A program made the position numbers and the translations under genes. The notes beneath the pieces are model-generated. The model was not told the DNA's origin. It searched no databases and worked only from the letters and a program-made list of their open reading frames with translations. Of a stretch of 64,000 nt of DNA, positions 5,110 to 49,148 are shown piece after piece. The DNA is from Alphaproteobacteria bacterium (GTDB lineage Bacteria; Pseudomonadota; Alphaproteobacteria; Rickettsiales; SXRF01): positions 4,923 through 68,922 of the forward strand of contig JABDCD010000001.1 in assembly GCA_013288305.1 (NCBI GenBank). The letters run 5' to 3'. The stretch's first letter is position 1; every line of letters starts with the position of its first letter.

Positions 5110-5189
5110 TGGTCAGTGGCCGGTTGTCAGTGGCCAGTCAGACAGCCAGTTTCGCGCCCTTACTGACCACTGGTCACTGATCACTGGAC
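5110..5189. repeat. hairpin family C (GTCAGTGGCC), intergenic rimI|lysC
   Basis: tggtcagtggccggttgtcagtggccagtcag ... ctgaccactggtcactgatcactggac. It starts directly after the rimI stop. Confidence 0.8.
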
Positions 5190-5199
5190 ACTACAAATT

Positions 5200-6435: not shown

Positions 6436-6912
6436 TTATCTCCCTTGATGTCTAAAGGGACTGGTTTTTTCCTGCCCGGTTGCCGCTCTAAGCAAAATAC
6501 CAAAACTCTGTATGGCATCAGGAGAAAGTTTTTCTGATAATTGATCGAGGATTTCTTGGGCTTTGTCCGAGCTTAGAAATTTTTTGTCCATTGTGGTATT
6601 GCGCGGAGGAGATTGTGCAGGCATTTTCAATGGATATAGTTTTTCTGACTTCAGAGCGTTCTGTATATTGAAGGACGAAAACAAGATGTCTGCTAATAGA
6701 GCGTGGATTTGATTATTGGCGGTATCCAAATTTTGCGTCAGTTTGCTGATGGTGGCAGCGAATTGCCTATAGCGTACCGCGGAGTCTTTACTTCCGCTGA
6801 GGAGGATTGGATTCTCCAAACTATGCAACAAATCATTTAAATTATAACGTCGAAGATTGTATTTTTTTCTCTTTTCATCTTCTGGGTCAACATCGGTTCT
6901 TGGGGTTGCCAT
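6436..6912 (-). CDS. hypothetical protein (orphan, AT-rich)
   Basis: 158-aa ORF in a clearly AT-rich stretch. No motif I recognise. Confidence 0.45.
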   Translation of the reverse strand: MATPRTDVDPEDEKRKKYNLRRYNLNDLLHSLENPILLSGSKDSAVRYRQFAATISKLTQNLDTANNQIHALLADILFSSFNIQNALKSEKLYPLKMPAQSPPRNTTMDKKFLSSDKAQEILDQLSEKLSPDAIQSFGILLRAATGQEKTSPFRHQGR

Positions 6913-7010: not shown

Positions 7011-8135
7011 ATGACTAACCATTTAAATTCTCTGTGGCGGCGCGGCGCCCACTTCCTTGGCTGCCAGTACGCCATCATGGGCGGGGCGATGTCGTGGGTT
7101 TCCGAGCGCAACCTGGTGGCGGCGCTTTCCAACGCCGGGGCGTTCGGTGTGATTGCCTGTAGTTCAATGTCGCCGGAATTGCTGGATAAGGAGATTACTG
7201 AAACCAAAAAACTTCTTACTTCCCCCTCCCCCGGTCGGGGGGAGGGCCGGGGAGGGGGTGACAAGGGAAATATTACTCGTGAAGCCCCCTCCCTAACCCT
7301 CCCCCCTGCAGGGGGAGGGGACAAGGTGCCCTTCGGCGTCAACCTCATTATCATGCACCCGCAGATGGATGCGCTCATCGAAGTCTGCAAAAAGCACAAC
7401 GTCTCGCACGTCGTGCTGGCGGGCGGCATTCCCAAGGATGGCTGGATCAAGGCGATCAAGGCCTATGGGGCGAAGGTGCTGTGCTTCGCGCCATCGGCCA
7501 TCATCGGCCGCAAGCTGGTGCGCCTCGGCGCCGACGCGCTGGTGATCGAGGGCATGGAGGCGGGCGGCCATATCGGCCCGGTCTCGACCTCGGTGCTGGC
7601 GCAGGAAATCCTGCCGCACATGAAAGACGTGCCGGTGTTCATCGCCGGCGGCATCGGCCGCGGCGAGGCCATCGCCGCCTATCTCGAAATGGGCGCATCC
7701 GGCGTCCAGCTGGGCACGCGCTTTGTCTGCGCCACCGAGTGCATCGCCCACCCGAACTTCAAGGAATGCTTCATCCGCAGCCAGTCGCGCGATGCCATCC
7801 CCTCGGTGCAGATCGACCCGGATTTCCCGGTCATCCCCGTGCGCGCCATCGCCAACAAAGCCACCGACGCCTTCACCCGGATGCAGCACGAAGTCATCGC
7901 CGAATTCAAGAGCGGCAAGCTCGATAAAAAAGAAGCGCAGCTCAAGATCGAACATTTCTGGGCCGGCGCCCTGCGCAAAGCCGTCATCGACGGCGACATC
8001 GAGTACGGCTCAGTCATGGCCGGCCAGAGCGTCGGCATGGTCAGCAAAATCCAGCCGGTGAAGGAGATTCTGGAGGAACTGATCGGGCAGGCGGAGGAGT
8101 ATATTACCGGGCGAAACTTAATCCCCAAAAAGTAA
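7011..8135 (+). CDS. NAD(P)H-dependent flavin oxidoreductase / nitronate monooxygenase family (FabK-like) with an in-frame repeat insertion
   Basis: GGAMSWVSERNLVAALSNAGAFGVIA, ALVIEGMEAGGHIG and FIAGGIGRGEAIAAYLEMGASGVQLGTRF. The insertion is at 7221-7326. Confidence 0.85.
   Translation: MTNHLNSLWRRGAHFLGCQYAIMGGAMSWVSERNLVAALSNAGAFGVIACSSMSPELLDKEITETKKLLTSPSPGRGEGRGGGDKGNITREAPSLTLPPAGGGDKVPFGVNLIIMHPQMDALIEVCKKHNVSHVVLAGGIPKDGWIKAIKAYGAKVLCFAPSAIIGRKLVRLGADALVIEGMEAGGHIGPVSTSVLAQEILPHMKDVPVFIAGGIGRGEAIAAYLEMGASGVQLGTRFVCATECIAHPNFKECFIRSQSRDAIPSVQIDPDFPVIPVRAIANKATDAFTRMQHEVIAEFKSGKLDKKEAQLKIEHFWAGALRKAVIDGDIEYGSVMAGQSVGMVSKIQPVKEILEELIGQAEEYITGRNLIPKK
7221..7326. repeat. two tandem CTTGTC-(C)nTCCCC hairpin modules (family E), in frame in the NMO-like gene
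   Basis: tccccctcccccggtcggggggagggccggggagggggtgacaagg and ccccctccctaaccctcccccctgcagggggaggggacaagg. Confidence 0.85.
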
Positions 8136-9338
8136 CATTTGCCGATTGTCCGTGGCTTTTTGTCTTTTTTTCTTTTGTTGCGTTGGTTTTCTGATTGGAA
8201 GAAATGCGCGTATCATATTTTTACGCGCTTTATATCCGCCTTCTATCAGTTTGATTAAATCCATCTCTACCAATGCATTAATATCTCTTGATATGGTTTT
8301 AGGAGTTTTTTTTGCATAATCTGCAGCTAAATCCGCTGTTAGTTTACTGAGTTGTGCTTTTGGAACAGGTTTGTCAGCCTTCGATAAGGCAAGTACTAAA
8401 GTACGCCTTCTTTTACCTGAGTTAGAATTATCGTTCCGAAATTGAGTATGAACAAAATTAGTCCACGTCACGTCAATTTGTTGTTCCCGTATAACGTCTA
8501 TTTGCTCCTTTAATTGCTCAACAAATCCCGTAACTGCATATTGAATAAAAGGCAATAAATCACCCCCAGACTTACTCGCTACATCTAACTGTCTGTAATA
8601 CTCTGTTCGTGTAAGGTTATAATAATTACTCAAAAGATGGGCTGCATCAGAGGGAACTCCAGATTCCATTAAAAATTTTAGCTCTAATAATCTGGCTGTT
8701 CTTCCATTGCCATCGCCAAAGGGATGTATCCATACAAAGTAAATGTGAGCCACTATAGCCTTGATAATACCATAAACGATTTCATTTCCTGCATTGGTAG
8801 CGAAAGTAGTCCCGTTCATCCATTTGCAAAATTCATTGACCAAATAAGGGCAATCCTCTGGAGGGGGACAGCGGTACCTGCCTACAACACGCGAGTCTTT
8901 GCGAATTTCACCAGGAATTACATCTTCTCCAACCGCTAGCTCGCTAAGAATCTGGCTATTAAAATGTGCGAGTAAATCTGATGATAAAGGAACGATTTCT
9001 CCCTTTTTAATTGGCTCTAAAACTCCGCCGAACGCAGACAAAATGTTTTGTATTTCTTTTATTAGGTATTCTCTAGAACGGGGTAAATGAAGCGTTCCAT
9101 CCAACGATTTCAAAACCTCTTCTTCTGATAGAGTATTGCCTTCTATCGCAGTTGTAGCAAATGCACCTTTAGCCAGATAAAGTCTGTGCAGTTTTTCTGC
9201 CGTGTCCGGACGCAATGGAATACCGGCAATATGCTCGCATTTAGATTGAGCTTCTCCTAGGGCTAACCATAAATGTGGAGATGCAGGTTTAAGATCAATA
9301 TTGAATGTAATCCAAGGATGTGTTTTTTTATATATCAT
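8118..9338 (-). CDS. Fic family protein (AMPylase-type) with a C-terminal winged-helix-like tail
   Basis: Canonical Fic motif HPFGDGNGRTAR. An N-terminal inhibitory-helix motif, TTAIEG, fits [ST]xxxE[GN]. The gene is AT-rich. Confidence 0.88.
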   Translation of the reverse strand: MIYKKTHPWITFNIDLKPASPHLWLALGEAQSKCEHIAGIPLRPDTAEKLHRLYLAKGAFATTAIEGNTLSEEEVLKSLDGTLHLPRSREYLIKEIQNILSAFGGVLEPIKKGEIVPLSSDLLAHFNSQILSELAVGEDVIPGEIRKDSRVVGRYRCPPPEDCPYLVNEFCKWMNGTTFATNAGNEIVYGIIKAIVAHIYFVWIHPFGDGNGRTARLLELKFLMESGVPSDAAHLLSNYYNLTRTEYYRQLDVASKSGGDLLPFIQYAVTGFVEQLKEQIDVIREQQIDVTWTNFVHTQFRNDNSNSGKRRRTLVLALSKADKPVPKAQLSKLTADLAADYAKKTPKTISRDINALVEMDLIKLIEGGYKARKNMIRAFLPIRKPTQQKKKRQKATDNRQMLLFGD

Positions 9339-9531: not shown

Positions 9532-11799
9532 GTGCCACGCATAAAAAACACCAAAATCCAGACCTCCTCGCCGCTGCTGTTGCTGCGGCAGATACGCGAC
9601 GTCATGGCGCAGGCGGCGGACGCGCAGGCGCGGCTCGACCAGGTGGTAACCATCATCGCCCGCGGCTTTTCCTCCGAAGTCTGCTCGGTCTATCTGCTGC
9701 GCGCCGGGGACATTCTCGAACTCTATGCCAGCCAGGGTTTGAAAAAATCATCGGTGCATTTGACGCGTTTGCAGGTTGGGCAGGGGCTGGTCGGCTCGAT
9801 TGCCGCCAGCGCCGCGCCGCTCAACCTCGCCGATGCGCAGTCGCATCCCAAATTCGAATACCGCCCGGAAACCGGCGAGGAAATTTACAACTCCTTCGTC
9901 GGTGTGCCGATCCTGCAGGGCGGCAAGGCCATCGGCGTGCTGGTCGTGCAGGGCAAGGCGGCGCGGGAATATTCGCCCGACCAGGTTGAAGTATTGCAGA
10001 CGGTAGCGATGGTGCTCTCCGAGCTGGCGATGTCCGGCCAGTTCGTCGACCGCCAGGAAATCGCGACGGCGACCGGTGGGCTGGTGGCGCAGCAGCTGGC
10101 GGGCGTCCGCCTCGCCCCGGGCATGGCCAAGGCCGTGGCCGTGCTGCATCAGCCGCAGCTGGTCATCACCCAATATGTCTCCGCCGATCCCGACCATGAA
10201 AAAGAGCGCTTCGAGAAAGCACTGCGCTCCCTGCAGGAATCGTTCGACCATTATATCCAATCTTCAGGACTTTCCGAGGACGACGAGCATCGCCAGATCA
10301 TCGAAACCTACCTACTCTTCACACAGGATCGCGGCTGGATTGCCCGCATCAACGAAGCCGTCGTCTCCGGCCTCACGGCGGAAGCGGCGGTGCGCAAAGT
10401 GCAGGAGGAACTCCAGGCGCGCATGAGCCAGATGGCCAGCCCCTACATCAAGGAACGCATCCAGGACCTCGAGGATTTATCGAACCACCTGTTGCAGGCG
10501 CTGCTGGGAAAACCCGTCGTTCCCAAGCCGCACGATCTGCCGGAAAGCTTCATCCTCGTCGCCCGCTCCATCGGCCCCGCCGAATTGCTCGATTACGATC
10601 ACAAGCGCCTCAAGGGCCTCATTCTCGAAGAAGGCTCGATCACCTCGCACACCGCGGTCATCGCCCGCGCCATGGATATTCCGGCCCTGGCCAAGGTGGA
10701 AAAAGCCACCACCGTCATCCGCCCCGGCGACACGGTGATCTTGGACGCCGAGGGCAACCAGGTCTATGTCCGCCCCAGCCCCGAGATCGAACTGGCGATG
10801 AACCGGCACATCGACCAATACGCCGTGCGCGCCGCCGAGTATGAGGGCCTGCGCGACGCCCCGGCGGTGACGCGTGATGGTGTGCGCATCTCGCTCAATG
10901 TCAATGCCGGATTATTTGTCGATAGCAAATCCGTGCTGCAGGCCGGCGTTGACGGCATCGGCCTCTACCGCACCGAACTGCCTTATATGACCTCGCCCAC
11001 TTTTCCCGACGTAGAAACCCAGGCGGCGCTCTATGCGTCGATGTACGCGCAACTGCCGGGAAAGCGCGTTATCTTCCGCAGCTTCGACATCGGCGGCGAC
11101 AAGAAAGTGCCCTATCTCCACGCCGGCGAGGAGGAAAACCCGGCCATGGGCTGGCGCGCCACCCGCATCGGCCTCGACCGCCCGGGCATCCTGCGCACGC
11201 AGTTCCGCGCCCTGATTAACGCCAGCGCCGGGCAGCCGCTCTGGGTCATGTTCCCCTTCATCGCCCAACTATCGGAATTCGATGCCGCCAAGCATTTACT
11301 GGAGCAGGAGCTGGAGACCGCCGAAACGCGCCCGTCTTCGCTCAAAGTCGGGCTGATGCTGGAGATTCCCTCGATCCTGTGGCAACTCGACGCGCTGATG
11401 CAACATGCCGATTTCGTCTCTATCGGCAGCAACGACCTAATGCAGTTTTTATTCGCCTGCGACCGCGGCGCCGCGCACATGGCCGACGCTTACGACACGC
11501 TGTCGCCGGTGATGCTGCGCGTCGTGCACGAGGTGGTAAGCAAAGCGCAGGGCCATAATGTCGAGGTCAGTTTCTGCGGCGAAATGGCGCGCCGCCCGCT
11601 CGACGCGCTGGCGCTGCTGGGGGTAGGCATCCGCAGCCTCTCGGTCTCGGCATCGGGCATCGGCCCCCTCAAGGCGATGATCCGCAGCTTGACACTGTCC
11701 GAACTTACCGATTATTTGCATTACCTGCTGCAATCCAATGAGCCGACGGTGCGCCATTGGCTGGCGGCGTATGCCAAAGATCACGGGATAGTGGTATAA
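9532..11799 (+). CDS. ptsP: phosphoenolpyruvate-protein phosphotransferase PtsP (EI-Ntr), GAF + EI domains
   Basis: N-terminal GAF region (EVCSVYLL...GLVG), EI histidine region GSITSHTAVIARA, and C-terminal SIGSNDLMQF. The start codon is GTG. Confidence 0.93.
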   Translation: MPRIKNTKIQTSSPLLLLRQIRDVMAQAADAQARLDQVVTIIARGFSSEVCSVYLLRAGDILELYASQGLKKSSVHLTRLQVGQGLVGSIAASAAPLNLADAQSHPKFEYRPETGEEIYNSFVGVPILQGGKAIGVLVVQGKAAREYSPDQVEVLQTVAMVLSELAMSGQFVDRQEIATATGGLVAQQLAGVRLAPGMAKAVAVLHQPQLVITQYVSADPDHEKERFEKALRSLQESFDHYIQSSGLSEDDEHRQIIETYLLFTQDRGWIARINEAVVSGLTAEAAVRKVQEELQARMSQMASPYIKERIQDLEDLSNHLLQALLGKPVVPKPHDLPESFILVARSIGPAELLDYDHKRLKGLILEEGSITSHTAVIARAMDIPALAKVEKATTVIRPGDTVILDAEGNQVYVRPSPEIELAMNRHIDQYAVRAAEYEGLRDAPAVTRDGVRISLNVNAGLFVDSKSVLQAGVDGIGLYRTELPYMTSPTFPDVETQAALYASMYAQLPGKRVIFRSFDIGGDKKVPYLHAGEEENPAMGWRATRIGLDRPGILRTQFRALINASAGQPLWVMFPFIAQLSEFDAAKHLLEQELETAETRPSSLKVGLMLEIPSILWQLDALMQHADFVSIGSNDLMQFLFACDRGAAHMADAYDTLSPVMLRVVHEVVSKAQGHNVEVSFCGEMARRPLDALALLGVGIRSLSVSASGIGPLKAMIRSLTLSELTDYLHYLLQSNEPTVRHWLAAYAKDHGIVV

Positions 11800-16011: not shown

Positions 16012-16962
16012 ATGCAAAATACCCCTTTGCAATTCCCCTTTTTTTCTGCTAAAGACGCTTTGCGCGATGCGGTAAGGTCGCTCGCGCGGGCCCGGATTGA
16101 AACGGCGTCGCTGGATGCAAGGTTATTGCTCCAGCATGTTTTGAACATAAGCCATGAACGGTTGCTGGCCGATGAAAAGCTGGCATTGATGCCGTTTCAA
16201 GAAGCGGATTATCAGGAGTTGGTTAAAAAGCGCTGCCTTCGTAGGCCGGTCGCGCAACTTATCGGCAAGCGCGAGTTTTATGGCCGGACGTTCAAGGTGA
16301 CGGAAGATACGCTCGATCCGAGGCCGGATAGTGAAACGCTGATCGAGGCGGTGCTGGAATGGGTCAATGGTCATAGGTCACGGGTCATGGGAAAAGAAAA
16401 ATTACCCATGACCTATGACCCAAAACCCATGACTATTCTCGATCTAGGCACGGGAACCGGCTGTTTGCTGCTGACGTTGCTGAAGGAATATGAAAATGCC
16501 AAAGGAGTTGGCGTGGATATTAGCGAAGCGGCGCTGAATGTGGCGCAGGAAAATGCGGAAAGCTTGGATGTGCGGGAACGCGCGGAATTTGTGCATTCGC
16601 ATTGGGATCAAAACATAGAAGGAACATTCGATATTATCGTCGCCAACCCCCCTTATATTCCAACCAATGCCATCGCCGCGCTGGCGCCGGAAGTGGCGCA
16701 GTATGAACCGAAACTCGCGCTCGATGGCGGCGCGGACGGGCTGGAATGCTACCGCGCCATCCTGCCGCCATTGCCGCGATTGCTGGCTGCCGGCGGGTTT
16801 GCCGCCTTTGAGATCGGGCAGGGGCAGGAAGAAGACGTAAAAGAATTAGTTGCTAGTTGCCAGTTGCGGGTTGCTGGCATCAAGAAAGATTTAGGAAATA
16901 TTTCTAGATGCATATTGGTACGGAAATCAGGCAATAACCAGCAACTGGCAACTAGCAACTAG
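16012..16962 (+). CDS. prmC: release-factor glutamine N5-methyltransferase (HemK) carrying repeat-derived segments
   Basis: SAM motif ILDLGTGTGCLLL and catalytic IVANPPYI. It starts 1 nt after the prfA stop. Confidence 0.9.
   Translation: MQNTPLQFPFFSAKDALRDAVRSLARARIETASLDARLLLQHVLNISHERLLADEKLALMPFQEADYQELVKKRCLRRPVAQLIGKREFYGRTFKVTEDTLDPRPDSETLIEAVLEWVNGHRSRVMGKEKLPMTYDPKPMTILDLGTGTGCLLLTLLKEYENAKGVGVDISEAALNVAQENAESLDVRERAEFVHSHWDQNIEGTFDIIVANPPYIPTNAIAALAPEVAQYEPKLALDGGADGLECYRAILPPLPRLLAAGGFAAFEIGQGQEEDVKELVASCQLRVAGIKKDLGNISRCILVRKSGNNQQLATSN
16361..16433. repeat. tandem-heptamer-arm hairpin, family D (GTCATGG), in frame in prmC
   Basis: gggtcaatggtcataggtcacgggtcatggg / loop aaaagaaaaatta / cccatgacctatgacccaaaacccatgac. 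Confidence 0.87.
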
Positions 16963-16973
16963 CAACTAGCAAC
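16849..16973. repeat. heptamer-arm inverted repeat, family F (GCYAGTT), spanning the prmC 3' end
   Basis: gttgctagttgccagttgcgggttgctggc ... ccagcaactggcaactagcaactagcaactagcaac. The arms are about 50 bp apart, and the stop codon lies inside the right arm. Confidence 0.8.
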
Positions 16974-17613: not shown

Positions 17614-17898
17614 ATGAAGATCACGTATGATCTGAAGAAAAACGCCGCCAATATGGCCAAGCACGGCGTTTCATTCGAGGATGCGTACGAGTTTGATTAT
17701 GCCGATTTTGCCGGCTGCCAATATAAGATCGACAGGCGAAGGGATTATGGCGAAGTGCGCTGGATAGCCACCGGCTATCTTCATAACAGGTTGCATGTGC
17801 TTTGTTATGTGGAAAAATTTAATGGTATCCGCGCCATCAGTTTTCGTAAAGCCAACGAAAGGGAAAGGAAAAAATATGAAAAAAGATCAGTACATTGA
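17614..17898 (+). CDS. brnT: BrnT family toxin (DUF497)
   Basis: YDLKKNAANMAKHGVSFEDA...RWIATGYLHNRLHVLCYVE...IRAISFRKANERERKKY. Confidence 0.85.
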   Translation: MKITYDLKKNAANMAKHGVSFEDAYEFDYADFAGCQYKIDRRRDYGEVRWIATGYLHNRLHVLCYVEKFNGIRAISFRKANERERKKYEKRSVH

Positions 17899-18181
17899 AT
17901 ATGAAGATGGAACGCGCGTGCTTCTGGATGAAGACGACGTGCCGGAACTGACCGACGAGGATTTTAAAAGGATGGTGCCGTTCAGCGCGCTACCCAAATC
18001 GCTGCGGCGCAAATTGTCGGCCATACAAAGCCGAGGTCGCCCGCGCTCGAAAGCGCCCAAGAAGATGATCGCCTTCCGCTTCGCGCCGGATTTGCTTGCC
18101 CACATCAAGGCGTCAGGCCGCGGCTATAACGCCCGCGTCGAGAAACTGCTGCGCCAGGCGTGGGAGCAGGGGTTACTGTAG
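17876..18181 (+). CDS. brnA: BrnA family antitoxin (DUF4415-like)
   Basis: It overlaps the brnT 3' end by 23 nt. Contains GRPRSKAPKKMIAFRFAPDLLAHIKASGRGYNARVEKLLR. Confidence 0.8.
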   Translation: MKKDQYIEYEDGTRVLLDEDDVPELTDEDFKRMVPFSALPKSLRRKLSAIQSRGRPRSKAPKKMIAFRFAPDLLAHIKASGRGYNARVEKLLRQAWEQGLL

Positions 18182-18993: not shown

Positions 18994-19076
18994 AATCCTG
19001 CGGCGCGTGAAACGCGAGCGCAGGATCTCAGCGATGATGCAAGATCCTGTGCCTCGCCTGCGGCTCGCACAGGATT
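18994..19076. repeat. bipartite ATCCTG hairpin repeat, upstream of clpB
   Basis: aatcctgcggcgcgtgaaacgcgagcgcaggatc + gatcctgtgcctcgcctgcggctcgcacaggatt. Confidence 0.85.
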
Positions 19077-21688: not shown

Positions 21689-21785
21689 CTTGTCATCCTC
21701 GGGCCTGACCCGAGGATCCATCCAAAAAATTTACCGCGCTCATGGAGTTTTGATGGATGGTCGGGTCAGGCCCGACCATGACAAA
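21689..21785. repeat. CTTGTCA-hairpin inverted pair (family L), after clpB
   Basis: cttgtcatcctcgggcctgacccgaggatccatcc ... ggatggtcgggtcaggcccgaccatgacaaa. Confidence 0.85.
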
Positions 21786-23838: not shown

Positions 23839-24216
23839 ATGGTTGCGTCGAATATTAAACCGACTGTTTCAGTGACTAATTTTTTGAATGCACACTGGAT
23901 CTTGCGAAGAACGAAGGAAGTAGTGGGAACCGCTGAGGAACAACCTTATCTTGTCGATACTACCGATTTACCTCAAATGAGTGAAAATGAACGAGATCAA
24001 TTTGAGCACATGCTCGATGGTGTGCCCATTTCCCAAATTGGTGGGGGACCGGGCTCGGTTAAAACTACTATTGGCGGGTTTGGATTAGCCGCAAAAGAGA
24101 AGATAGTTGCTCTGGTTCATCCGTCTGAAGAGGTTCTTCCTTTTGACGGCGATCAGAGGCCTCTTCGTTTTGAAGGCGATCAGGGATTCCAGCAAACCGG
24201 AACAAGGTCCAGATAA
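23839..24216 (+). CDS. hypothetical protein (AT-shifted orphan between rpsL and rpsG)
   Basis: 125-aa ORF with GGGGA 7 nt upstream of the ATG. It fills the whole rpsL-rpsG intercistronic space. Confidence 0.55.
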
Positions 24217-24707: not shown

Positions 24708-24839
24708 AATCCTGCGAGCCGTGAGGCTGCGCAGGATCAAATAGAAAGAAGAGTTATGAAGGTTGTATTTTTGAATCAAATTGACGGGAGGATCCCGTGC
24801 TCACGTCTTTTGCATATGCAAAAGCCGCGCCACGGGATT
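24708..24839. repeat. ATCCTG hairpin plus a variant ATCCCGTG hairpin, rpsG|fusA
   Basis: aatcctgcgagccgtgaggctgcgcaggatc at 24708-24738; gatcccgtgctcacg...gccacgggatt at 24791-24839. Confidence 0.8.
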
Positions 24840-24845
24840 TGAAAT

Positions 24846-26920
<2,075 letters not shown>

Positions 26921-26921
<1 letters not shown>

Positions 26922-26954
26922 ATCCTGTGGGCCGCGAAGCGGCAGCACAGGATC
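26921..26954. repeat. ATCCTG hairpin 1 directly after the fusA stop
   Basis: aatcctgtgggccgcgaagcggcagcacaggatc. Confidence 0.85.
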
Positions 26955-26961
26955 TGGGAAA

Positions 26962-27123
26962 ATGATGAGTGAAATTGTAGAAAAAGGATTGGAAGATCGA
27001 AAAGATAAATTTGGAATTTCTGAACGCGAAGCCCGTGAAATGTACGAGCGGATGCGGATGAAATATCCGGAGTTTCCAATAAAAGAATGGGAAAAGTTGA
27101 CTAAAAAAGAACTAAACAACTGA
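26962..27123 (+). CDS. hypothetical small protein (53 aa, my own translation; below the ORF-track cutoff)
   Basis: It translates as [53 protein letters not shown]. It is AT-rich and sits between the two hairpin halves at 26921-26954 and 27128-27157. The SD is weak. Confidence 0.4.
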
Positions 27124-27127
27124 ACGA

Positions 27128-27157
27128 GATACTGCGCAGGCTTCGCCTCGCAGGATT
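27128..27157. repeat. ATCCTG hairpin 2 (degenerate), upstream of tuf
   Basis: gatactgcgcaggcttcgcctcgcaggatt. Confidence 0.8.
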
Positions 27158-27175
27158 GAAACGAGGAGCACAATT

Positions 27176-28366
27176 ATGACCAAAGAGACCTTCAAACGTA
27201 CGAAGCCGCATTGCAATATTGGCACGATCGGGCACGTGGATCACGGGAAGACGAGCCTGACGGCAGCCATAACAAAAGTCCTGGCCGAGACCGGCAAGGC
27301 GAAATACACCGCCTACGACCAGATCGACGCGGCCCCGGAGGAAAAGGCGCGCGGCATTACGATTAATACGGCGCACGTCGAGTACGAAACCGACAAGCGG
27401 CATTATGCCCATGTCGATTGCCCGGGCCACGCCGACTACGTGAAGAACATGATCACCGGCGCCGCGCAGATGGACGGCGCTATATTAGTAGTCTCTGCCG
27501 CCGATGGCCCTATGCCGCAAACCCGCGAGCACATTCTATTAGCCAGACAGGTCGGCGTCCCCGCCATCGTCGTGTTCTTGAACAAATGCGACATGGTCGA
27601 TGACCCCGAACTGCTGGAACTGGTCGAGATGGAAGTACGCGAGTTGCTCAACAAGTATAAATTCCCCGGCGACACCATCCCCATCATCAAGGGATCGGCT
27701 ACCTGCGCCCTGGAAGGCAAGTCCCCCGAACTGGGCCATGATGCCATCTTGAAGCTGATGGAAGCGGTGGACAGTACCATTCCCCAACCCGAACGCCCGC
27801 TGGACAAACCCTTCCTGATGCCAATCGAAGACGTGTTCAGCATCTCCGGCAGAGGTACTGTCGTCACGGGCCGCGTCGAGCGCGGCATCGTCAAGGTCAA
27901 CGAGGAAATCGAGATCGTGGGACTAAGGCCCACCCAGAAAACCGTCTGCACCGGCGTCGAAATGTTCCGCAAGCTGCTCGACGAAGGAAGAGCGGGTGAT
28001 AACGTCGGCATTCTCCTCAGAGGCACCAAGCGCGAAGAAGTCGAACGCGGCCAGGTGCTGTGCAAGCCGGGCAGCATCACCCCGCACACCAAGTTCACCG
28101 CGGAGATCTACGTGCTGACCAAGGAAGAAGGCGGAAGACATACTCCCTTCTTCAGCAACTACCGCCCGCAATTTTACTTCCGCACCACCGACGTCACCGG
28201 CAGCCTGACCCTGCCCAAAGGCGTCGAGATGATCATGCCCGGCGACAACGTCACCATCGAAGCCACCCTCATCTCCCCCATCGCTATGGAGGAGGGATTG
28301 AGGTTTGCTATTCGTGAGGGTGGTAGGACCATTGGGGCTGGGGTCGTGGCCAAGGTCGTGGAGTAG
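27176..28366 (+). CDS. tuf: elongation factor Tu
   Basis: [28 protein letters not shown] and NKCD. Confidence 0.98.
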
Positions 28367-28374
28367 GAGGAGTT

Positions 28375-28656
28375 ATGATTGAATCTAACAATAAGAGGGA
28401 AACTGCGCTGGTAAGACGCATAAAAGCTGCGACTGATCCGGCGAAACAATCCGAATTTCCACTTGATAAGGCTTTAGTGTTGAATGCCGCGCTTCAGCCT
28501 ATTGCTGAAGCAGTAGACGCACTTTCTGAAAGAGTGCGGCAGATCGAGTCTCATCTCGGTATTGAGCCACCGAGTACTGCAAGTGCCACCGATTTTTTAA
28601 GAGACCGTAGAAAAGCTGAGAAACGTGGTCTTGGCACTAACGGAACAGCTAGGTAA
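28375..28656 (+). CDS. hypothetical protein (AT-shifted orphan between tuf and rpsJ)
   Basis: 93-aa ORF with AGGAGG 5 nt upstream of the ATG. Its stop is 3 nt before the rpsJ ATG. Confidence 0.6.
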
Positions 28657-28659
28657 TTT

Positions 28660-28977
28660 ATGCAAAACCAGAAAATCAGAATTTGGCTCAAGGCTTTCGA
28701 CCACCGCGTGCTCGACCAGAGCACGGCGGAGATCGTGAGCACGGCCAAGCGCACCGGTGCAAATGTGGTGGGGCCGATTCCGCTGCCGCGCCGCATTCAG
28801 CGTTATACGGTCAACCGCTCGCCGCACATCGACAAGAAATCGCGCGAGCAGTTCGAAATCCGCACGCACAAGCGCCTGATCGACATTCTCGATCCGACGC
28901 CGCAGACGGTCGATGCGCTGATGAAATTGGATTTGGCCTCGGGCGTGGATATTAAGATTAAGGCGGAGGCGGCTTAG
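28660..28977 (+). CDS. rpsJ: 30S ribosomal protein S10
   Basis: [18 protein letters not shown]...[23 protein letters not shown]. Confidence 0.98.
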
Positions 28978-28981
28978 TACT

Positions 28982-29039
28982 AATCCTGTGGGCGCGAAGC
29001 GCAGCACAGGATCCTGCGCAGGCTTCGCCTCGCAGGATT
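28982..29039. repeat. bipartite ATCCTG hairpin repeat, rpsJ|rplC
   Basis: aatcctgtgggcgcgaagcgcagcacaggatcctgcgcaggcttcgcctcgcaggattt. Confidence 0.88.
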
Positions 29040-29055
29040 TTGAGAGGAAAGAATT

Positions 29056-29793
29056 ATGAGAACCGGACTGATAGCGAAAAAACTGGGCATGACGACCGTC
29101 TATGGCGACGCGGGCGAGGAAACGCCTGTGACCGTTTTGCAGGTGGAAAACTGCCAGGTCGTGGCGCAGAAGACTTTAGGCAGAGACGGCTATACCGCCG
29201 TGCAGCTGGGCGTCGGCGTGGCCAAGGCAAAAAACACCAGCAAAAGTTTGCGCGGTCATTATGCCAAGGCCAAAGTCGAACCCAAGCGCAAGCTCGCCGA
29301 ATTCCGCGTCGCCGAAAACGCGATTCTCGAGCCGGGCGTCGAGCTCGTCGCCAGCCATTTCGTGCCGGGACAATATGTCGATGTCTCCGGCGACACCGTC
29401 GGCAAGGGCTTCGCGGGCGTGATGAAGCGCTGGAATTTCGCCGGGCTGGAAGCGTCGCACGGCGTGTCGGTATCGCACCGCTCGCACGGATCGACCGGCC
29501 AGCGCCAGGATCCGGGCCGCACCTTCAAAGGCAAGAAAATGGCCGGGCACATGGGCACGCGCCGCCGCACCGTGCAGAATCTGGAAATCATGCAGGTCGA
29601 TGACGAGCAGGGCGTGATCATGGTCAAGGGCGCCGTGCCGGGCGCAGAAAACGGTTACGTGCTGGTCAAGGACGCGGTCAAAAAAGGCGCGCACCCGAAA
29701 GCGCCGTATCCGGCGGGTCTTCGGCAAAGTCCTGTGAGCGCCGAAGGCGCTGCACAGGATCCAGCGCAAGATACTCAGGAGGCCAAAAACTAG
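29056..29793 (+). CDS. rplC: 50S ribosomal protein L3 (C-terminal tail reads through a repeat)
   Basis: [16 protein letters not shown]...[13 protein letters not shown]. Confidence 0.97.
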
Positions 29794-29826
29794 ATCCTGC
29801 GCAATCGCAGAGCGATTCGCAGGATT
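29728..29826. repeat. bipartite ATCCTG hairpin repeat, rplC 3' end|rplD
   Basis: agtcctgtgagcgccgaaggcgctgcacaggatc lies in frame in rplC, followed by gatcctgcgcaatcgcagagcgattcgcaggatt. Confidence 0.88.
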
Positions 29827-31937: not shown

Positions 31938-32016
31938 AATCCTGTGAGCCGCGAAAGCGGCTGCACAGGATCAAAGGTAACAGATCCTGCGCAATCGCTT
32001 CGCGATTCGCAGGATT
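31938..32016. repeat. bipartite ATCCTG hairpin repeat, rpsS|rplV
   Basis: aatcctgtgagccgcgaaagcggctgcacaggatc + gatcctgcgcaatcgcttcgcgattcgcaggatt. Confidence 0.9.
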
Positions 32017-32028
32017 AGGGAGAAGAAT

Positions 32029-32514
32029 ATGAGCAAGAAAAGTTTAGAGCGCCAACTGGAGGCAACGGAAGCCAAAGCGGTCATCAACCGCCTGCGCATT
32101 TCGCCGCGCAAGTTGAACCTGGTGGCGGGCTTGATCCGCGGCATGGATGTCAGCAGCGCGCTGACGCAGCTTTCTTTCAGCGGCAAGCGCATTGCCAATG
32201 ACGTGCGGAAGGGGCTGCAATCGGCCATCGCCAATGCCGAGAATAACCATAATCTGAACGTCGATTCGCTCTATGTGAAAGAGGCCTATGTCGGCAAGAA
32301 CATCGTCATGAAGCGCATGCACACGCGCGGCCGCGGCCGCTCGGCGCGCATCTTGAAACCGTTCGCCAATTTGACGCTGATCGTGCGCGAGCGCGGCGAG
32401 GAAAGTATCAATCCTGTGAGCCGTAAGGCTGCACGGGATCAAGCGAAAAAGTCGAAAGATCCTGTGCAGCGCAAAAAGCGCTCACAGGATTCAAAGAAAA
32501 AGGAGTCCAACTAA
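32029..32514 (+). CDS. rplV: 50S ribosomal protein L22 (long repeat-derived C-terminal tail)
   Basis: [20 protein letters not shown]. The tail from about 32404 is encoded by ATCCTG hairpins. Confidence 0.95.
32410..32491. repeat. bipartite ATCCTG hairpin repeat translated as the rplV C-terminal tail
   Basis: aatcctgtgagccgtaaggctgcacgggatc + gatcctgtgcagcgcaaaaagcgctcacaggatt. Confidence 0.88.
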
Positions 32515-34175: not shown

Positions 34176-34241
34176 TAGGTTCTAGGTGCTAGAGGCTAGG
34201 TTCTAGTTTTAACTAGCACCTAGAACCTAGCCCCTAGCACC
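34176..34241. repeat. tandem-heptamer-arm hairpin, family G (TAGGTTC), rpsQ|rplN
   Basis: taggttctaggtgctagaggctaggttctag tttt aactagcacctagaacctagcccctagcacc. Confidence 0.88.
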
Positions 34242-34264
34242 TTAATGAAAAAACAGAGGAATTT

Positions 34265-34633
34265 ATGATACAGCAACAAACCAATCTCGAAGTCGCCGAC
34301 AATTCCGGTGCGCGGCGTGTGATGTGCATCAAGGTATTGGGCGGTTCGCAGCGGCGGTACGGCTCGGTCGGCGACGTCATCGTCGTCTCGATCAAGGACG
34401 CCATTCCGCGCGGCAAGGTCAAAAAAGGCGAGGTGCACAAGGCCGTCATCGTGCGCACGCGCCGCGATATCCGCCGTCCCGACGGCAGCACGATCCGTTT
34501 CGACAAGAACGCAGCGGTGCTGCTCACGGCGCAAAACGAGCCGATCGGCACGCGCATCTTCGGACCCGTAACGCGCGAACTGCGCGCCAAGCAGTTCATG
34601 AAGATCGTGTCGCTGGCGCCGGAGGTATTATGA
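34265..34633 (+). CDS. rplN: 50S ribosomal protein L14
   Basis: [28 protein letters not shown]. Confidence 0.98.
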
Positions 34634-34690
34634 GGTTCTAGGGACTGGGTTCTAGGTTCTAGTAGCACCTAGCCCCTAGAACCTAGCACC
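34634..34690. repeat. family G hairpin, rplN|rplX
   Basis: ggttctagggactgggttctaggttctag tagcacctagcccctagaacctagcacc. Confidence 0.88.
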
Positions 34691-34712
34691 TAAATTTATA
34701 AGGAATGAGAAA

Positions 34713-35033
34713 ATGACAAAGGCAAAGTTTAAAGTAAAAAAAGGCGACGAAGTCATCGTCATCGCCGGCCGCGAAAAAGGCAAAAAGGGTAAGATCACGC
34801 AGGTGATCACCGAGTCGTCGCGCGTCGTCGTCGAGGGTGTCAACAAGGTGAAGCGCCACCAGAAACCGTCCAAGCTTTCCGGCGGCGGCATCGTCGAGAA
34901 AGAAATGTCGCTGCACGTGTCCAACGTCATGCTGCTCGACCCCAAATCGGGCAAGGGCACGCGCGTCGGCTATAAAATCGAAGGCGAGCGCAAGCTGCGC
35001 ATCGCGCGGAGTTCAGGAGCACCAATCCTGTGA
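34713..35033 (+). CDS. rplX: 50S ribosomal protein L24
   Basis: KVKKGDEVIVIAGREKGKKGKI; KOW motif. Confidence 0.96.
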   Translation: MTKAKFKVKKGDEVIVIAGREKGKKGKITQVITESSRVVVEGVNKVKRHQKPSKLSGGGIVEKEMSLHVSNVMLLDPKSGKGTRVGYKIEGERKLRIARSSGAPIL

Positions 35034-35083
35034 GGCGTGAGCCTGCACAGGATCCTGTGCAGTCGCTTCGCGCCTCGCAGGAC
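35024..35083. repeat. bipartite ATCCTG hairpin repeat, rplX 3' end|rplE
   Basis: aatcctgtgaggcgtgagcctgcacaggatcctgtgcagtcgcttcgcgcctcgcaggact. Confidence 0.85.
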
Positions 35084-35108
35084 TAAGTAAATAGAGAAGG
35101 AAAAGAAT

Positions 35109-35711
35109 ATGGCTAAAACAAATGCAATGAAAAAAGATCCTGCGCCGCCTGGCGGCTCGCAGGATAAATACACGCCGCGCCTCCAGGCCGCCTACGAAAA
35201 AGAGGTGCGTGCGGCGCTGCAGAAGCAGTTCAATTACAAGAACGCCATGCAGGTGCCCAAGCTCGACAAAATCGTCATCAACATGGGCGTCGGCGAAAAC
35301 GTCAACGACAGCAAAACCATCCAGGCGGCGGTCAGCGACATGACGTTGATTGCCGGCCAGAAGCCGCTCATCACCAAGTCGAAAAAAGCCATCGCCAGCT
35401 TCAAGCTGCGCGAAAACCTGGCCATCGGCTGCAAGGTGACGCTGCGCAAGCAGAAGATGTACGAGTTCCTTGACCGGCTGATCAACACCGCCCTGCCGCG
35501 CGTGCGCGATTTCCGCGGCGTGAAAAACAACAGCTTCGACGGCCGCGGCAATTACGCGCTCGGCCTCAAAGAGCAAATCGTGTTCCCCGAGATCAATTAC
35601 GACAAAATCGATCAGGTGCGCGGTATGGACATCATCATCTGCACCACCGCGGGCACCGACGCCGAGGCGAAGGCATTGCTCACCGGCTTCAACATGCCTT
35701 TCATTAAATAG
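35109..35711 (+). CDS. rplE: 50S ribosomal protein L5 (N-terminal extension contains a translated hairpin repeat)
   Basis: [13 protein letters not shown]...[17 protein letters not shown]. There is no ATG downstream of the repeat at 35136-35165, so the repeat must be translated. Confidence 0.95.
35136..35165. repeat. single ATCCTG hairpin inside the rplE 5' coding region
   Basis: gatcctgcgccgcctggcggctcgcaggat, which encodes [10 protein letters not shown]. Confidence 0.85.
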
Positions 35712-35728
35712 AGACGAGTGAGGTGAAT

Positions 35729-35986
35729 ATGTCGATCAATGTCAGTAAAGCGAATGAGCAGATGGAACAGGATTTGCCACTATACCCGGAGAGGCAAAAA
35801 GATGAAAGCTGGGTAGCTTATGTTGAGAACGGTCAGGATGGAGTCAAGAGATTTGGTTTCCATAAAGATAGGGATAAACTATATGCGGCATTGCATAAAA
35901 AAGGCTATACGGATGCTCAGCTGCTGGTCAGCCGTTTCATGCCGCGTGACGACAGTCCTATAGAAGAATATCTTTTGAATAGATAA
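35729..35986 (+). CDS. hypothetical protein (AT-shifted orphan between rplE and rpsN)
   Basis: GAGGTG lies 5 nt upstream of ATG 35729; the track alternative is GTG 35723. 85-87 aa with no motif I recognise. Confidence 0.55.
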   Translation: MSINVSKANEQMEQDLPLYPERQKDESWVAYVENGQDGVKRFGFHKDRDKLYAALHKKGYTDAQLLVSRFMPRDDSPIEEYLLNR

Positions 35987-36318: not shown

Positions 36319-36393
36319 AATCCTGTGAGCCGCGAGGCTGCACAGGATCTAGGAAAAAGAGATCCTGCGCAATCGCATGGCGATTCGCAGGAT
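36319..36393. repeat. bipartite ATCCTG hairpin repeat, rpsN|rpsH
   Basis: aatcctgtgagccgcgaggctgcacaggatc + gatcctgcgcaatcgcatggcgattcgcaggat. Confidence 0.9.
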
Positions 36394-36413
36394 GTAACGA
36401 AGGAGAAGATACT

Positions 36414-36816: not shown

Positions 36817-36873
36817 AATCCTGCGAGCCGCAAGGCTGCGCAGGATACTGTGCAGGCTTCGCCTCACAGGATT
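36817..36873. repeat. bipartite ATCCTG hairpin repeat, rpsH|rplF
   Basis: aatcctgcgagccgcaaggctgcgcaggatactgtgcaggcttcgcctcacaggattt. Confidence 0.88.
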
Positions 36874-37427: not shown

Positions 37428-37520
37428 AATCCTGTGAGCCGCGTAAGCGGCTGCACAGGATCATGTAAAACTATTAAAAATGAAAGGATCCTGCGCAACT
37501 GCTCCGCAGTTCGCAGGATT
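37428..37520. repeat. bipartite ATCCTG hairpin repeat, rplF|rplR
   Basis: aatcctgtgagccgcgtaagcggctgcacaggatc + 24-nt AT-rich spacer + gatcctgcgcaactgctccgcagttcgcaggatt. Confidence 0.9.
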
Positions 37521-39257: not shown

Positions 39258-39722
39258 ATGCAACTCAACGAACTCAAATCCAATCCCGGCTCGCACCATC
39301 GCAAGATGCGCGTGGGTCGCGGCATCGGCAGCGGCAAGGGCAAAACCTGCGGCCGCGGCGGCAAAGGACAAACCGCGCGCACCGGCGTGCGCATCAACGG
39401 CTTCGAGGGCGGCCAGACGCCGATCCATCGCCGCCTGCCCAAGCGCGGCTTCAACAACCCGACGCGCAAGGAAATCGCCACCGTCAATCTCGGCGCCATC
39501 GAAAAAGCCATCACCGCAGGCAAACTCGACGCCAAGAAGGACATCAACCTGGACGCGCTGAAAGCCGCCGGATTGCTGCGCAAAAATGCTTCGGAAGTCA
39601 AACTGCTGGCCAAGGGCGAACTGAAAGCTAAGATTTCGCTGCACGTCAATTTTGCGTCTGAAGGCGCGAAGGCTGCGGTGGAGAAGGCGGGTGGCAGTGT
39701 CGTCATGAGTCATGGGTCATGA
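39258..39722 (+). CDS. rplO: 50S ribosomal protein L15 (last codons lie in a repeat arm)
   Basis: [21 protein letters not shown]. Confidence 0.97.
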
Positions 39723-39785
39723 GTCATGGGGTTCAAGCGATTCACTCATGACCAATGACCAAAAACCCATGACCCACTTATGACC
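39702..39785. repeat. family D hairpin spanning the rplO 3' end and the secY start codon
   Basis: gtcatgagtcatgggtcatgagtcatgggg ... ctcatgaccaatgaccaaaaacccatgacccacttatgacc. Confidence 0.88.
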
Positions 39786-41840: not shown

Positions 41841-41915
41841 GGGATTGGGGATTAGGGATTAGGGATTGGAAAATAATGATTTTTTCCCAATCCCCAATCC
41901 CCAATCCCCATCCCC
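41841..41915. repeat. tandem-heptamer-arm hairpin, family H (GGGATTR), adk|rpsM
   Basis: gggattggggattagggattagggattgg / aaaataatgatttttt / cccaatccccaatccccaatccccatcccc. Confidence 0.9.
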
Positions 41916-42312: not shown

Positions 42313-42404
42313 GGATGTGGGGATGTGGAAGGATGTGGAGATGTGGGGAATAAGAAAGATTTTTTCTTTCTCCACATCCCCACATCTCCATCTCCCCACA
42401 TCCC
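42313..42404. repeat. family A hairpin, rpsM|rpsK
   Basis: ggatgtggggatgtggaaggatgtggagatgtgggg / aataagaaagattttttctttc / tccacatccccacatctccatctccccacatccc. Confidence 0.9.
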
Positions 42405-42853: not shown

Positions 42854-42919
42854 GTACCCGGTACACGGTACTCGGTACCCGGTGAAGATTTTGAGTACCG
42901 TGTACTGAGTACCATGTAC
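42854..42919. repeat. tandem-heptamer-arm hairpin, family I (GGTACNC), rpsK|rpoA
   Basis: gtacccggtacacggtactcggtacccggtg / aagattttga / gtaccgtgtactgagtaccatgtac. Confidence 0.88.
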
Positions 42920-43953: not shown

Positions 43954-44013
43954 AATCCTGTGAGCCGTAAGGCTGCACAGGATCCTGCGCAATCGCTTGG
44001 CGCTTCGCAGGAT
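43954..44013. repeat. bipartite ATCCTG hairpin repeat, rpoA|rplQ
   Basis: aatcctgtgagccgtaaggctgcacaggatcctgcgcaatcgcttggcgcttcgcaggattt. Confidence 0.9.
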
Positions 44014-44032
44014 TTGAACTAGGAGAAATAAA

Positions 44033-44513: not shown

Positions 44514-44626
44514 CTTGTCATTCCCGCGAAGGCAGGAATCCAGCAAAAGCGCCATGGGCGCGGTATAGAATTCTTCTGCGCCGCAGACGCGGCGCGCTGG
44601 ATTCCCGTTTTCACGGGAATGACAGG
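44514..44626. repeat. CTTGTCA-hairpin inverted pair (family L; ATTCCC-N8-GGGAAT cores), rplQ|crcB
   Basis: cttgtcattcccgcgaaggcaggaatccagc ... gctggattcccgttttcacgggaatgacagg. Confidence 0.87.
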
Positions 44627-48456: not shown

Positions 48457-48750
48457 ATGCGCACCAATATCATCGTCAATGACCGTCTGATGAAACAGGC
48501 CATGCAGCTATCCGGTCTGCATACCAAAAAATCGGTGGTGGAGGAAAGCCTCAAGCTTTTCGTGCAAATGCAGAAGCAAAAAAAGCTTTCCGCGTGGTTC
48601 AGAATACGTGGCAGGCAAAAGAGCGGACAGCCTTTGCCACAACCAGATCGGCTTTTGGCGCTTGCCGGGTCCATTAGTGATGAGGACGCTAATGGTATGA
48701 TGCGCGTTATTTATGAAGATCGTTCTGCGGATTGGGATGCGCGTACGTGA
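48457..48750 (+). CDS. vapB: VapB-type antitoxin (type II TA) with a C-terminal extension
   Basis: MRTNIIVNDRLMKQAMQLSGLHTKKSVVEESLKLFVQMQKQ. Confidence 0.75.
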   Translation: MRTNIIVNDRLMKQAMQLSGLHTKKSVVEESLKLFVQMQKQKKLSAWFRIRGRQKSGQPLPQPDRLLALAGSISDEDANGMMRVIYEDRSADWDART

Positions 48751-49148
48751 CGGGCTGCATCCTTGATAGCGATGTGCTCATCCAGTTGCTTCGTAAAGAC
48801 GCGAAAGCTGTCGGCGATATTGCATCTATCCCCATCCCGGCGCGCCACACCACTATCATTACCTGCTCTGAATTATTGTACGGCGCCTATAATTCCGCCG
48901 CTGTGGAAAGAAATCTTGCTGTTACGCACCAGCTATTGAATGAATTAACCATCTTGCCGCTAACTTACGAATGCTGCGAACAATACGGCGCGTTAAAAGC
49001 GTTGCTTCGCAAGCGGGGCATCACCATCGGCGACAAGGACTTATTGATTGCCGCTATTGCCGTCAGCCATAATCTTCCGATTTTTACTTATAATCTGCGT
49101 GACTTTGGGCGCGTTCCCGGCTTAAAGTTGCACCCGTTATCACGCTAA
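48732..49148 (+). CDS. vapC: PIN-domain ribonuclease toxin VapC
   Basis: ILDSDVLIQLL...DLLIAAIAVSHNLPIFTYNLRDF. The start is uncertain: TTG 48732, or GTG 48747 which overlaps the vapB stop. Confidence 0.78.
   Translation: MGCAYVTGCILDSDVLIQLLRKDAKAVGDIASIPIPARHTTIITCSELLYGAYNSAAVERNLAVTHQLLNELTILPLTYECCEQYGALKALLRKRGITIGDKDLLIAAIAVSHNLPIFTYNLRDFGRVPGLKLHPLSR

Follow-up and report, generated by a model that had tools for sequence, protein, structure and literature searches.

A conserved small open reading frame within a hairpin-repeat doublet at the fusA-tuf junction of an uncultured alphaproteobacterium

The junction between fusA and tuf, which encode the elongation factors EF-G and EF-Tu, has grown in an uncultured alphaproteobacterium of the Rickettsiales (assembly GCA_013288305.1). 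In the 64,000-nucleotide stretch analysed here (contig JABDCD010000001.1, positions 4,923 to 68,922 of the forward strand; hereafter the window, numbered from its first letter), the two genes are separated by 254 nt, and this gap holds two hairpins with an open reading frame (ORF) of 53 amino acids, termed ORF53, between them. With a probability of about 0.62, this arrangement is explained by a doublet of repetitive extragenic palindromes (REPs) together with a genuine small gene that occupies the spacer of the doublet. The usual view of REP doublets is of elements that are empty and non-coding, whereas the fusA-tuf doublet appears to carry a conserved protein gene, amid an operon that ranks among the most highly expressed and most conserved in bacteria. 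To our knowledge, no protein gene has been described inside the spacer of a REP doublet forming hairpin (REPIN).

The two hairpins bracket ORF53 closely. The final A of the fusA stop codon (TAA, 26919-26921) doubles as the first base of the first hairpin (H1), in which an 8-bp outer stem (ATCCTGTG/CACAGGAT) is followed by a 1x2 internal loop, a 5-bp inner stem and a GAA loop (by parts, aATCCTGTG-GGCCGCGAAGCGGCAG-CACAGGATc). The second hairpin (H2; by parts, gATACTGCG-CAGGCTTCGCCT-CGCAGGATt) carries one arm mismatch (GATACTG, not GATCCTG); the H2 copies at 29010-29039 and 36844-36873 have almost the same sequence. ORF53 takes up almost the whole of the spacer between them (Table 1). Its coordinates, its peptide and the 173-nt distance between the hairpins agree with a first-pass annotation made from the letters of the window, which had described an ORF between the two halves of a bipartite repeat; the ORF does lie between the halves of one doublet, rather than between two doublets. 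An independent Logan assembly of run SRR8432341 (L239) is identical across 10 kb, which argues that the arrangement is not an assembly artefact. H1 and H2 each fold locally in the minimum-free-energy structure of a 286-nt RNA (z = -3.3). Neither a promoter nor a terminator was found at the block, and intrinsic termination at H1 or H2 was ruled out, given that no T-run follows either hairpin. Together with the shared strand, these observations suggest that ORF53 is transcribed within the str operon (rpsL-rpsG-fusA-tuf). Searches of Rfam gave nothing credible at E <= 1 for positions 26850-29100 and, at the gathering score, only tRNA for the whole window.

Several lines of evidence indicate that ORF53 encodes a protein. 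In 5000 dinucleotide shuffles of the 173-nt spacer, an ORF of this length was rarely obtained (p = 0.003 with any start codon, 0.001 with ATG). A word-indexed search of 5.8 billion proteins recovered only ORF53 itself, while an exhaustive phmmer search of 1.84 billion representatives recovered a sole homolog, P0122 (34 amino acids as called, E = 6e-8), and a profile built from the two sequences found no further homologs. P0122 is encoded on 13 contigs of the GROS21-1 metagenomes in ENA, between fusA and tuf, where it is flanked by H1 (L242 9900-9933) and H2 (L242 10105-10137) with a spacer of 171 nt. Comparison by tblastn lengthens the similarity to residues 8-53 of ORF53 (74% identity over 46 residues, E = 1.6e-19). 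The GROS21 organism (L242) has a G+C content of 43%, against 57% in the window organism, and the fusA and tuf genes of the two are 89% identical in protein and 72% in DNA and differ at 63-66% of third codon positions. Across the 46 shared codons of ORF53, the proportions of nonsynonymous and synonymous differences (pN and pS) are 0.138 and 0.585 in the ORF frame, corresponding to a dN/dS of 0.13, compared with 0.60 and 1.33 in the other two frames. When the 30 differences were placed at random with their spectrum kept, every one of 20,000 trials produced more than 12 amino-acid changes, and an in-frame stop was absent from only 14%. On the strength of the dN/dS value, the random placements and the improbability of so complete a filling of the spacer, ORF53 is predicted to be a protein-coding microprotein gene under purifying selection; the first-pass annotation had counted lack of conservation among the outcomes that would undo its reading, and the ORF is conserved. 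A search for the peptide and spacer elsewhere, proposed at the same time, yielded this syntenic ortholog but no second copy anywhere.

The block of H1, ORF53 and H2 is therefore present at the same junction in a second lineage of very different base composition, and the other relatives lack it. In L119, L246 and L120, whose EF-G is 93-94% identical to that of the window, fusA and tuf are separated by 11, 12 and 13 nt, respectively, with TAA followed directly by GGAG...ATG. The gap measures 38 nt in L247 (EF-G 92% identical) and ~47 nt in L241 (93% identical), whereas in the REEB114 lineage (L118 and L240; 95% identical) it measures 298 nt and contains an unrelated 75-amino acid ORF. No ATCCTG hairpin occurs at fusA-tuf in any of these genomes. 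Since five relatives have bare junctions and one an unrelated ORF, the block is derived, which upholds the earlier proposal of an insertion in the sense of an addition to an ancestrally tight junction. In the window, the AGGAGCA...ATG sequence that follows H2 agrees with the bare L119 junction, which places the added block after the stop codon and before the ribosome-binding site.

The hairpins themselves belong to a repeat family concentrated in the ribosomal-protein operons. The pattern ATCCTGYG-N8-30-CRCAGGAT has 19 exact matches in the window, compared with 0.01 expected from shuffles. With one mismatch allowed per arm, the family is found at 12 sites in 64 kb, all between 18994 and 44014, a region comprising the clpB upstream sequence and the str, S10, spc and alpha ribosomal-protein operons. 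Eleven of these sites have an H1-type copy (with a...c flanks) and, after it, an H2-type copy (with g...t flanks); four of the pairs share a GATC, six have spacers of 10, 11, 15, 17, 24 and 31 nt, and that at fusA-tuf has 173 nt. The first-pass annotation had recognized the family from nine other junctions with spacers of 0-31 nt. The family stands, though the window holds eleven other doublets, of which ten have spacers in that range (from overlaps with a shared GATC up to 31 nt); the doublet between rpsG and fusA, with 52 nt, had been missed. The H2 of that doublet contains a perfect 18-nt palindrome (CTTTTGCATATGCAAAAG) nested within its loop, and a 28-codon mini-ORF from 24757 reads across the nested palindrome and stops 3 nt short of the fusA ATG. 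The nearest sequence relative of both hairpins at fusA-tuf is the rpsJ-rplC doublet.

The family unit is a palindrome of 30-34 nt with an outer stem (ATCCTGYG/CRCAGGAT), an asymmetric internal loop and a variable inner stem of 3-5 bp. All the asymmetric features of the H1 type recur in H2 as their reverse complement: the flanks are a..c in H1 and g..t in H2, the internal loops are mirrored (1x2 versus 2x1), and the terminal loops are GAA/GNRA in H1 and of the UUCG type in H2. Among 34 distinct 34-nt H1 copies, 92% of cells are paired, falling to 23-44% when the partner columns are shifted by 1-3 positions, and two-sided changes occur in 57 cells compared with 17 in shuffles, none of 500 of which reach 57. 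The inner-stem changes are compensatory, and the hairpins are a genuine repeat family under structural constraint. In every doublet the spacer is rich in A+T and in purines. The family is widespread in metagenomes, where at least 118 loci with whole doublets were located. In a scan of genome contigs for the H1 pattern only, in which most matches listed are chance single hairpins, doublets are present in three lineages of metagenome-assembled genomes among the matches listed (REEB114, REEB182 and RE-15aug16-6). The family comprises two subfamilies, with flanks a..c/g..t (including the window) and c..c/g..g. Singlets are rare, nearly every H1 being followed by an H2, and L200 holds two oppositely oriented copies of one doublet, alike down to the spacer, which indicates that the doublet behaves as a copied unit.

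The sequence family to which this REP doublet belongs has not been described before; its architecture is like that of REPINs and bacterial interspersed mosaic elements (BIMEs). In those elements two REPs are inverted around a variable, poorly conserved spacer, and the doublet is the unit that occurs in many extragenic copies (PMC3337134). The window family likewise consists of short imperfect palindromes paired in inverted orientation around a variable spacer. However, its sequence is unrelated to described REPs, its spacers are short (0-31 nt) and not palindromic, its copies within the window are concentrated at the junctions of ribosomal-protein operons, some even lying inside coding sequence, and no REP-associated tyrosine transposase (RAYT) is present in the DNA examined. 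No RAYT (HUH/Tyr transposase) was detected among the AT-rich ORFs of the window, nor among the 19 ORFs of 110-230 amino acids that are flanked by hairpins on both sides across all loci, though a single-copy gene could easily lie elsewhere. RAYT genes and IS200/IS605 elements resemble ORF53 in being bracketed by two inverted structured palindromes. ORF53 differs from them in its size of 53 amino acids, the lack of HUH/Tyr motifs, of a Pfam Y1_Tnp hit and of any sign of transposition, and its occurrence as a single copy at one conserved locus. Another comparison is provided by the Rickettsia palindromic elements (RPEs), palindromic repeats of ~100-150 bp that insert in frame into protein genes. 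Hairpins of the window are similarly read through in frame in rplC (the C-terminus of L3), rplV (an extension of L22) and rplE (the N-terminus of L5), and the rplX stop codon sits in an H1 (35024-35033). The window units are much shorter (30-34 nt) and organized as doublets in a high-GC lineage, and the likeness drawn here is one of insertion habit. The hairpin in rplE has an equivalent insertion in the 43%-GC relative (L242 17704-17734).

Whether doublet spacers attract insertions, as the first-pass annotation had supposed in calling them a preferred landing site, was addressed by a spacer survey along the lines that it had recommended for the whole genome. This covered 136 doublet-bearing loci (0.95 Mb, 333 hairpins) and 91 distinct pairs of first and second neighbouring hairpins; at least one short-spacer doublet was required per locus, and only the additional doublets at each locus are unbiased. 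Spacers range from -4 to 31 nt in 84 of the 91 pairs and measure 52 and 65 nt in two more. The sole gene-bearing spacers are that at fusA-tuf (173 nt) and its ortholog (171 nt). Long spacers at L217 (213 nt), L121 (123 nt) and L175 (2127 nt) were traced to other repeat families or unrelated neighbours and set aside. The 24-nt spacer at 37463-37486, once proposed as an empty or eroded version of the insert, bears no discernible relation to it: 1217 of 2000 shuffles score equally well against the insert, and it lines up with a 28-nt spacer at the same rplF-rplR junction in L242, both spacers being ordinary.

It is consequently unlikely that a mobile segment carrying the ORF entered an empty doublet at a favoured integration site, with other spacers empty or eroded. 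Such a history would be in keeping with the position of the ORF between one H1 and one H2 in normal doublet order, with the 52- and 65-nt tail of spacer lengths and with the resident look of the flanking hairpins, both of which are most like the intact rpsJ-rplC doublet while the cargo is shared with another genome. Yet one orthologous locus alone is occupied among ~88 doublets of the family, neither a second cargo copy nor a relative of the insert in the 24-nt spacer was found, and no recombinase or target duplication is evident beyond the GATC of the hairpins themselves. Moreover, other junction ORFs lack flanking hairpins, which points to the junction between cistrons, and not the spacer, as the recurrent target. 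Marginally less unlikely is an origin in which the gene came first, with ORF53 settling at a bare junction and single REPs arriving later, or in which H1, ORF53 and H2 form a single RAYT-like cassette. Hairpin-less junction ORFans exist in the window, in REEB114 and in L242; a single hairpin is found in the window (35136-35166); REPs around a gene are the known arrangement of RAYTs (PMC3337134); and no genome was found with an empty doublet at fusA-tuf. Nor was any found there with ORF53 lacking hairpins. These points are offset by the doublet, not the singlet, being the unit of the family, by the improbability that independent colonization would give precisely a left-hand H1 and a right-hand H2 in each of the two lineages, by inner stems that are specific to each genome around a shared cargo, and by the size of ORF53, which is far too small for a RAYT and has no HUH motif.

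Very unlikely is the view that there is no gene, the spacer being a non-coding AU-rich RNA (an RNase E site or tuf leader) and the reading frame a by-product of A-rich, T-poor sequence. The AT- and purine-rich composition common to all doublet spacers is consistent with this view, as are a weak Shine-Dalgarno sequence, a frame break near the 5' end of the copy in the relative and the lack of any family or structure match. It accounts poorly for the shuffle and random-placement results given above, for the strong bias of the differences between the copies to synonymous changes in the ORF frame only, and for a confident single-sequence AlphaFold2 model (pLDDT 80.5).

On the preferred reading, of a REP doublet with a genuine small gene in its spacer, the REP family would have populated the ribosomal-protein operon junctions of this lineage, and doublet and gene together would have enlarged an ancestral fusA-tuf gap of ~12 nt to 254 nt. 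ORF53 may be tolerated in the unstructured AT-rich spacer, where extra DNA would leave both hairpins undisturbed, and may derive from a pool of AT-rich accessory mini-genes that occupy the cistron junctions of these operons. The probable role of the hairpins is to shield the mRNA, as 3' and 5' structures on either side of an AU-rich spacer that can be cleaved, to judge from E. coli. There, malEFG with its protective 3' REP hairpin and papBA with RNase E cleavage upstream of a 5' hairpin are established models, in which the 3' hairpin guards the upstream segment and the 5' hairpin guards the downstream segment after cleavage of the AU-rich linker (PMC5927463). In sequence, the fusA-tuf block resembles these operons in having stem-loops directly after the stop codon and directly before the ribosome-binding site with an AU-rich stretch between them; four doublets of the window differ in having no single-stranded spacer.

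ORF53 was somewhat more probably imported or exchanged between relatives than inherited with its flanking genes. The G+C content at third codon positions (GC3) is 0.36 in ORF53, compared with 0.79 in fusA of the window and 0.33 in fusA of L242. The pS of ORF53 (0.585, with a standard error of ~0.10) is lower than that of fusA in pairs involving L242 (0.70-0.89), which is 0.89 between the window and L242 and 0.70 in the best composition-matched pair with L242. Furthermore, the inner stems of the fusA-tuf hairpins resemble the own copies of each genome, while the cargo is common to both. Together, these three features point to import, or late arrival, with a low-GC relative as the source. Among the seven relatives, L242 is the most divergent in EF-G (pN to the others of 0.083-0.097, versus 0.041-0.071 among the rest), and other ribosomal proteins put it about as far off as L247. 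If ORF53 was exchanged between relatives at a fixed junction, this would be an unusual case of site-conserved horizontal transfer.

Several observations weigh against this account or parts of it. Two ORF53 sequences exist, with 46 alignable codons, and the estimates of selection therefore carry wide errors. ORF53 has a weak Shine-Dalgarno sequence, GGGA, located 3-6 nt ahead of its ATG. At the 5' end of the L242 ortholog (9945-9970), the conserved part is not in frame with the upstream ATG, the one served by a GAGG Shine-Dalgarno sequence. A colinear protein of exactly 53 amino acids would result from a -1 slip on A_AAA_AAG (9959-9965), whose phase is that of the slippery site in E. coli dnaX; the out-of-frame sequence is identical on 13 contigs, and this copy may reflect programmed -1 frameshifting, an internal start or early decay. 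Membership of the REPIN-RAYT system is architectural only, with no RAYT-type transposase seen in the DNA examined. With respect to import, the window and L242 share doublets at rplX-rplE, rpsN-rpsH, rpsH-rplF and rplF-rplR as well as the in-frame H2 in the N-terminus of L5, a pattern that would fit vertical inheritance of the whole arrangement with loss elsewhere, and the case for import rests on composition and 24.5 synonymous sites. The proposed role of the hairpins in mRNA processing is a pure analogy with the E. coli operons.

The structure predicted for ORF53 offers a tentative lead to its function. The AlphaFold2 model is a three-helix bundle, and its best Foldseek matches are the RNA-binding ANTAR domains of EutV, Rv1626 and AmiR (TM-score 0.70, root-mean-square deviation 1.8 Å over 46 residues), which, like the model, are three-helix modules of ~50 residues. 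ANTAR proteins bind paired hairpins. However, three-helix bundles are common, and ANTAR targets carry hexaloops, whereas the hairpins at this locus have tri- and tetraloops. Foldseek searches of the PDB and BFVD returned nothing significant (ANTAR E ~4), and a sequence search of the PDB with ORF53 gave nothing relevant; with no PF03861 hit in addition, ORF53 is not assigned to the ANTAR family. In Pfam it has no match at E <= 1 except DUF1947 (0.067). Pfam, PHROGs and NCBIfam gave no credible match for ORF53 or seven other junction ORFs, and tblastn against phage and plasmid collections gave none for ORF53 or the junction ORFs. An unlikely proposal is that ORF53 is an ANTAR-like hairpin binder encoded inside its own target, and that the junctions of this clade are expression slots for ORFan microproteins. 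Were this so, ORF53, made together with EF-G and EF-Tu, would tune the processing or translation of REP-bearing ribosomal-protein mRNAs, and would be to these doublets what a RAYT is to the REPINs around it, though without enzymatic activity. Lineage-specific ORFan microproteins would likewise be captured and exchanged at such junctions, with four in the window and others in REEB114 and the GROS21 organism.

Beyond fusA-tuf, ORFans also occupy the rpsL-rpsG, tuf-rpsJ and rplE-rpsN junctions of the window (Table 1). They are AT-rich (GC3 0.35-0.45), each is longer than shuffles would yield (p <= 0.001), and they have neither a family match nor flanking REP hairpins; the corresponding junctions are tight in relatives. 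Different ORFans are found in close relatives: REEB114 has one of 140 amino acids at rpsG-fusA (L118 9576-9998) and the 75-amino acid ORF at fusA-tuf (L118 12146-12373), and the GROS21 organism has two at rpsG-fusA, of 109 (L242 7262-7591) and 39 amino acids (L242 7614-7733). The copies of the 75- and 140-amino acid ORFs in REEB114 and JAGWKI are identical, and no selection signal can be read from them. Comparison of the junction ORFs with one another found them unrelated. Junction content turns over fast between lineages whose EF-G is 89-95% identical. The presence of at least three other ORFan mini-genes nearby, and of different ones in close relatives, suggests that the ribosomal-protein operon junctions of this uncultured alphaproteobacterial clade are open to invasion by structured repeats and small genes. 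Small genes that invade such junctions would gain strong expression for free. The clade provides candidate microproteins and a natural system for the effect of intercistronic REP hairpins on polycistronic mRNAs.

Table 1. Positions in the window of the fusA-tuf block, the other REP doublets and the junction ORFans
Feature	Position	Strand	Remarks
fusA (EF-G, 691 amino acids)	24846-26921	+	Pfam EF-G domains on the identical protein P0002
H1, first REP hairpin of the doublet	26921-26954	+	aATCCTGTGGGCCGCGAAGCGGCAGCACAGGATc, 34 nt
AT-rich inter-REP spacer	26955-27127	+	173 nt, 37% G+C, 43% A
ORF53, predicted 53-amino acid protein gene	26962-27123	+	ATG start; peptide exactly as first annotated
H2, second REP hairpin, inverted copy of the H1 type	27128-27157	+	gATACTGCGCAGGCTTCGCCTCGCAGGATt
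tuf Shine-Dalgarno sequence	27164-27169	+	GAGGAG
tuf (EF-Tu)	27176-28366	+	ATG start at 27176
Doublet upstream of clpB	18994-19076	+	15-nt spacer; same place in the REEB114 metagenome-assembled genome (L118 4214-4295)
rpsG-fusA doublet	24708-24839	+	H1 24708-24738, 52-nt AT-rich spacer, degenerate H2 24791-24839
rpsJ-rplC doublet	28982-29039	+	Hairpins share GATC
rplC-rplD doublet	29728-29826	+	31-nt spacer; H1 (29728-29761) encodes the C-terminus of L3
rpsS-rplV doublet	31938-32016	+	10-nt spacer
Doublet within the rplV ORF (32029-32514)	32410-32491	+	17-nt spacer; read as a C-terminal extension of L22
rplX-rplE doublet	35024-35084	+	Shared GATC
Lone H2-type hairpin in the N-terminal coding region of rplE	35136-35166	+	
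rpsN-rpsH doublet	36319-36394	+	11-nt spacer
rpsH-rplF doublet	36817-36873	+	Hairpins share bases
rplF-rplR doublet	37428-37520	+	24-nt spacer (37463-37486)
rpoA-rplQ doublet	43954-44014	+	Shared GATC
ORFan at the rpsL-rpsG junction	23839-24216		125 amino acids
ORFan at the tuf-rpsJ junction	28375-28656		93 amino acids
ORFan at the rplE-rpsN junction	35723-35986		87 amino acids

The window contains other intergenic repeats. A second class of hairpin consists of an inverted pair of arrays, each made up of some four 7- or 8-mers in tandem (such as GGGATTA x4 facing CCCAATC x4). These are located at 2033-2102, 2255-2341, 3727-3797, 3980-4067, 5108-5192, 16363-16433, 16847-16973, 34176-34242, 34633-34692, 39702-39774, 41841-41915, 42313-42404, 42854-42919 and 54378-54455. 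Nearly every locus has its own unit, and several lie at ribosomal-protein junctions that have no REP doublet. Intergenic heptamer direct repeats are known from Beggiatoaceae (PMC4679880), though the arrays of the window are inverted and look different. Another family of inverted repeats (TGTCATTCCCGCGAAGGCAGGAATCCAGC and relatives) is present at the intergenic sites 44516-44624 and 21690-21784, and in REEB114 at the rpsL-rpsG junction (L118 about 9010-9085).

Low-GC accessory genes are scattered among the high-GC housekeeping genes of the window (1119-1763, 6436-6912, 8118-9338, 17795-18181, 48457-49148 and 53768-54205). They include genes for an ORF6N-domain protein, a 158-amino acid ORF of unknown function, a Fic/DOC protein (39% G+C), a BrnA antitoxin and a probable toxin-antitoxin pair, as well as a transposase-type helix-turn-helix protein beside a tRNA (54977-55058). 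In the GROS21 metagenomes, one contig (L245 5014-6414) carries a REP doublet and a radical-SAM gene after tuf in place of rpsJ; the part of this contig from fusA through the ORF to tuf is identical to L242, and it represents either a rearranged strain or a chimeric contig.

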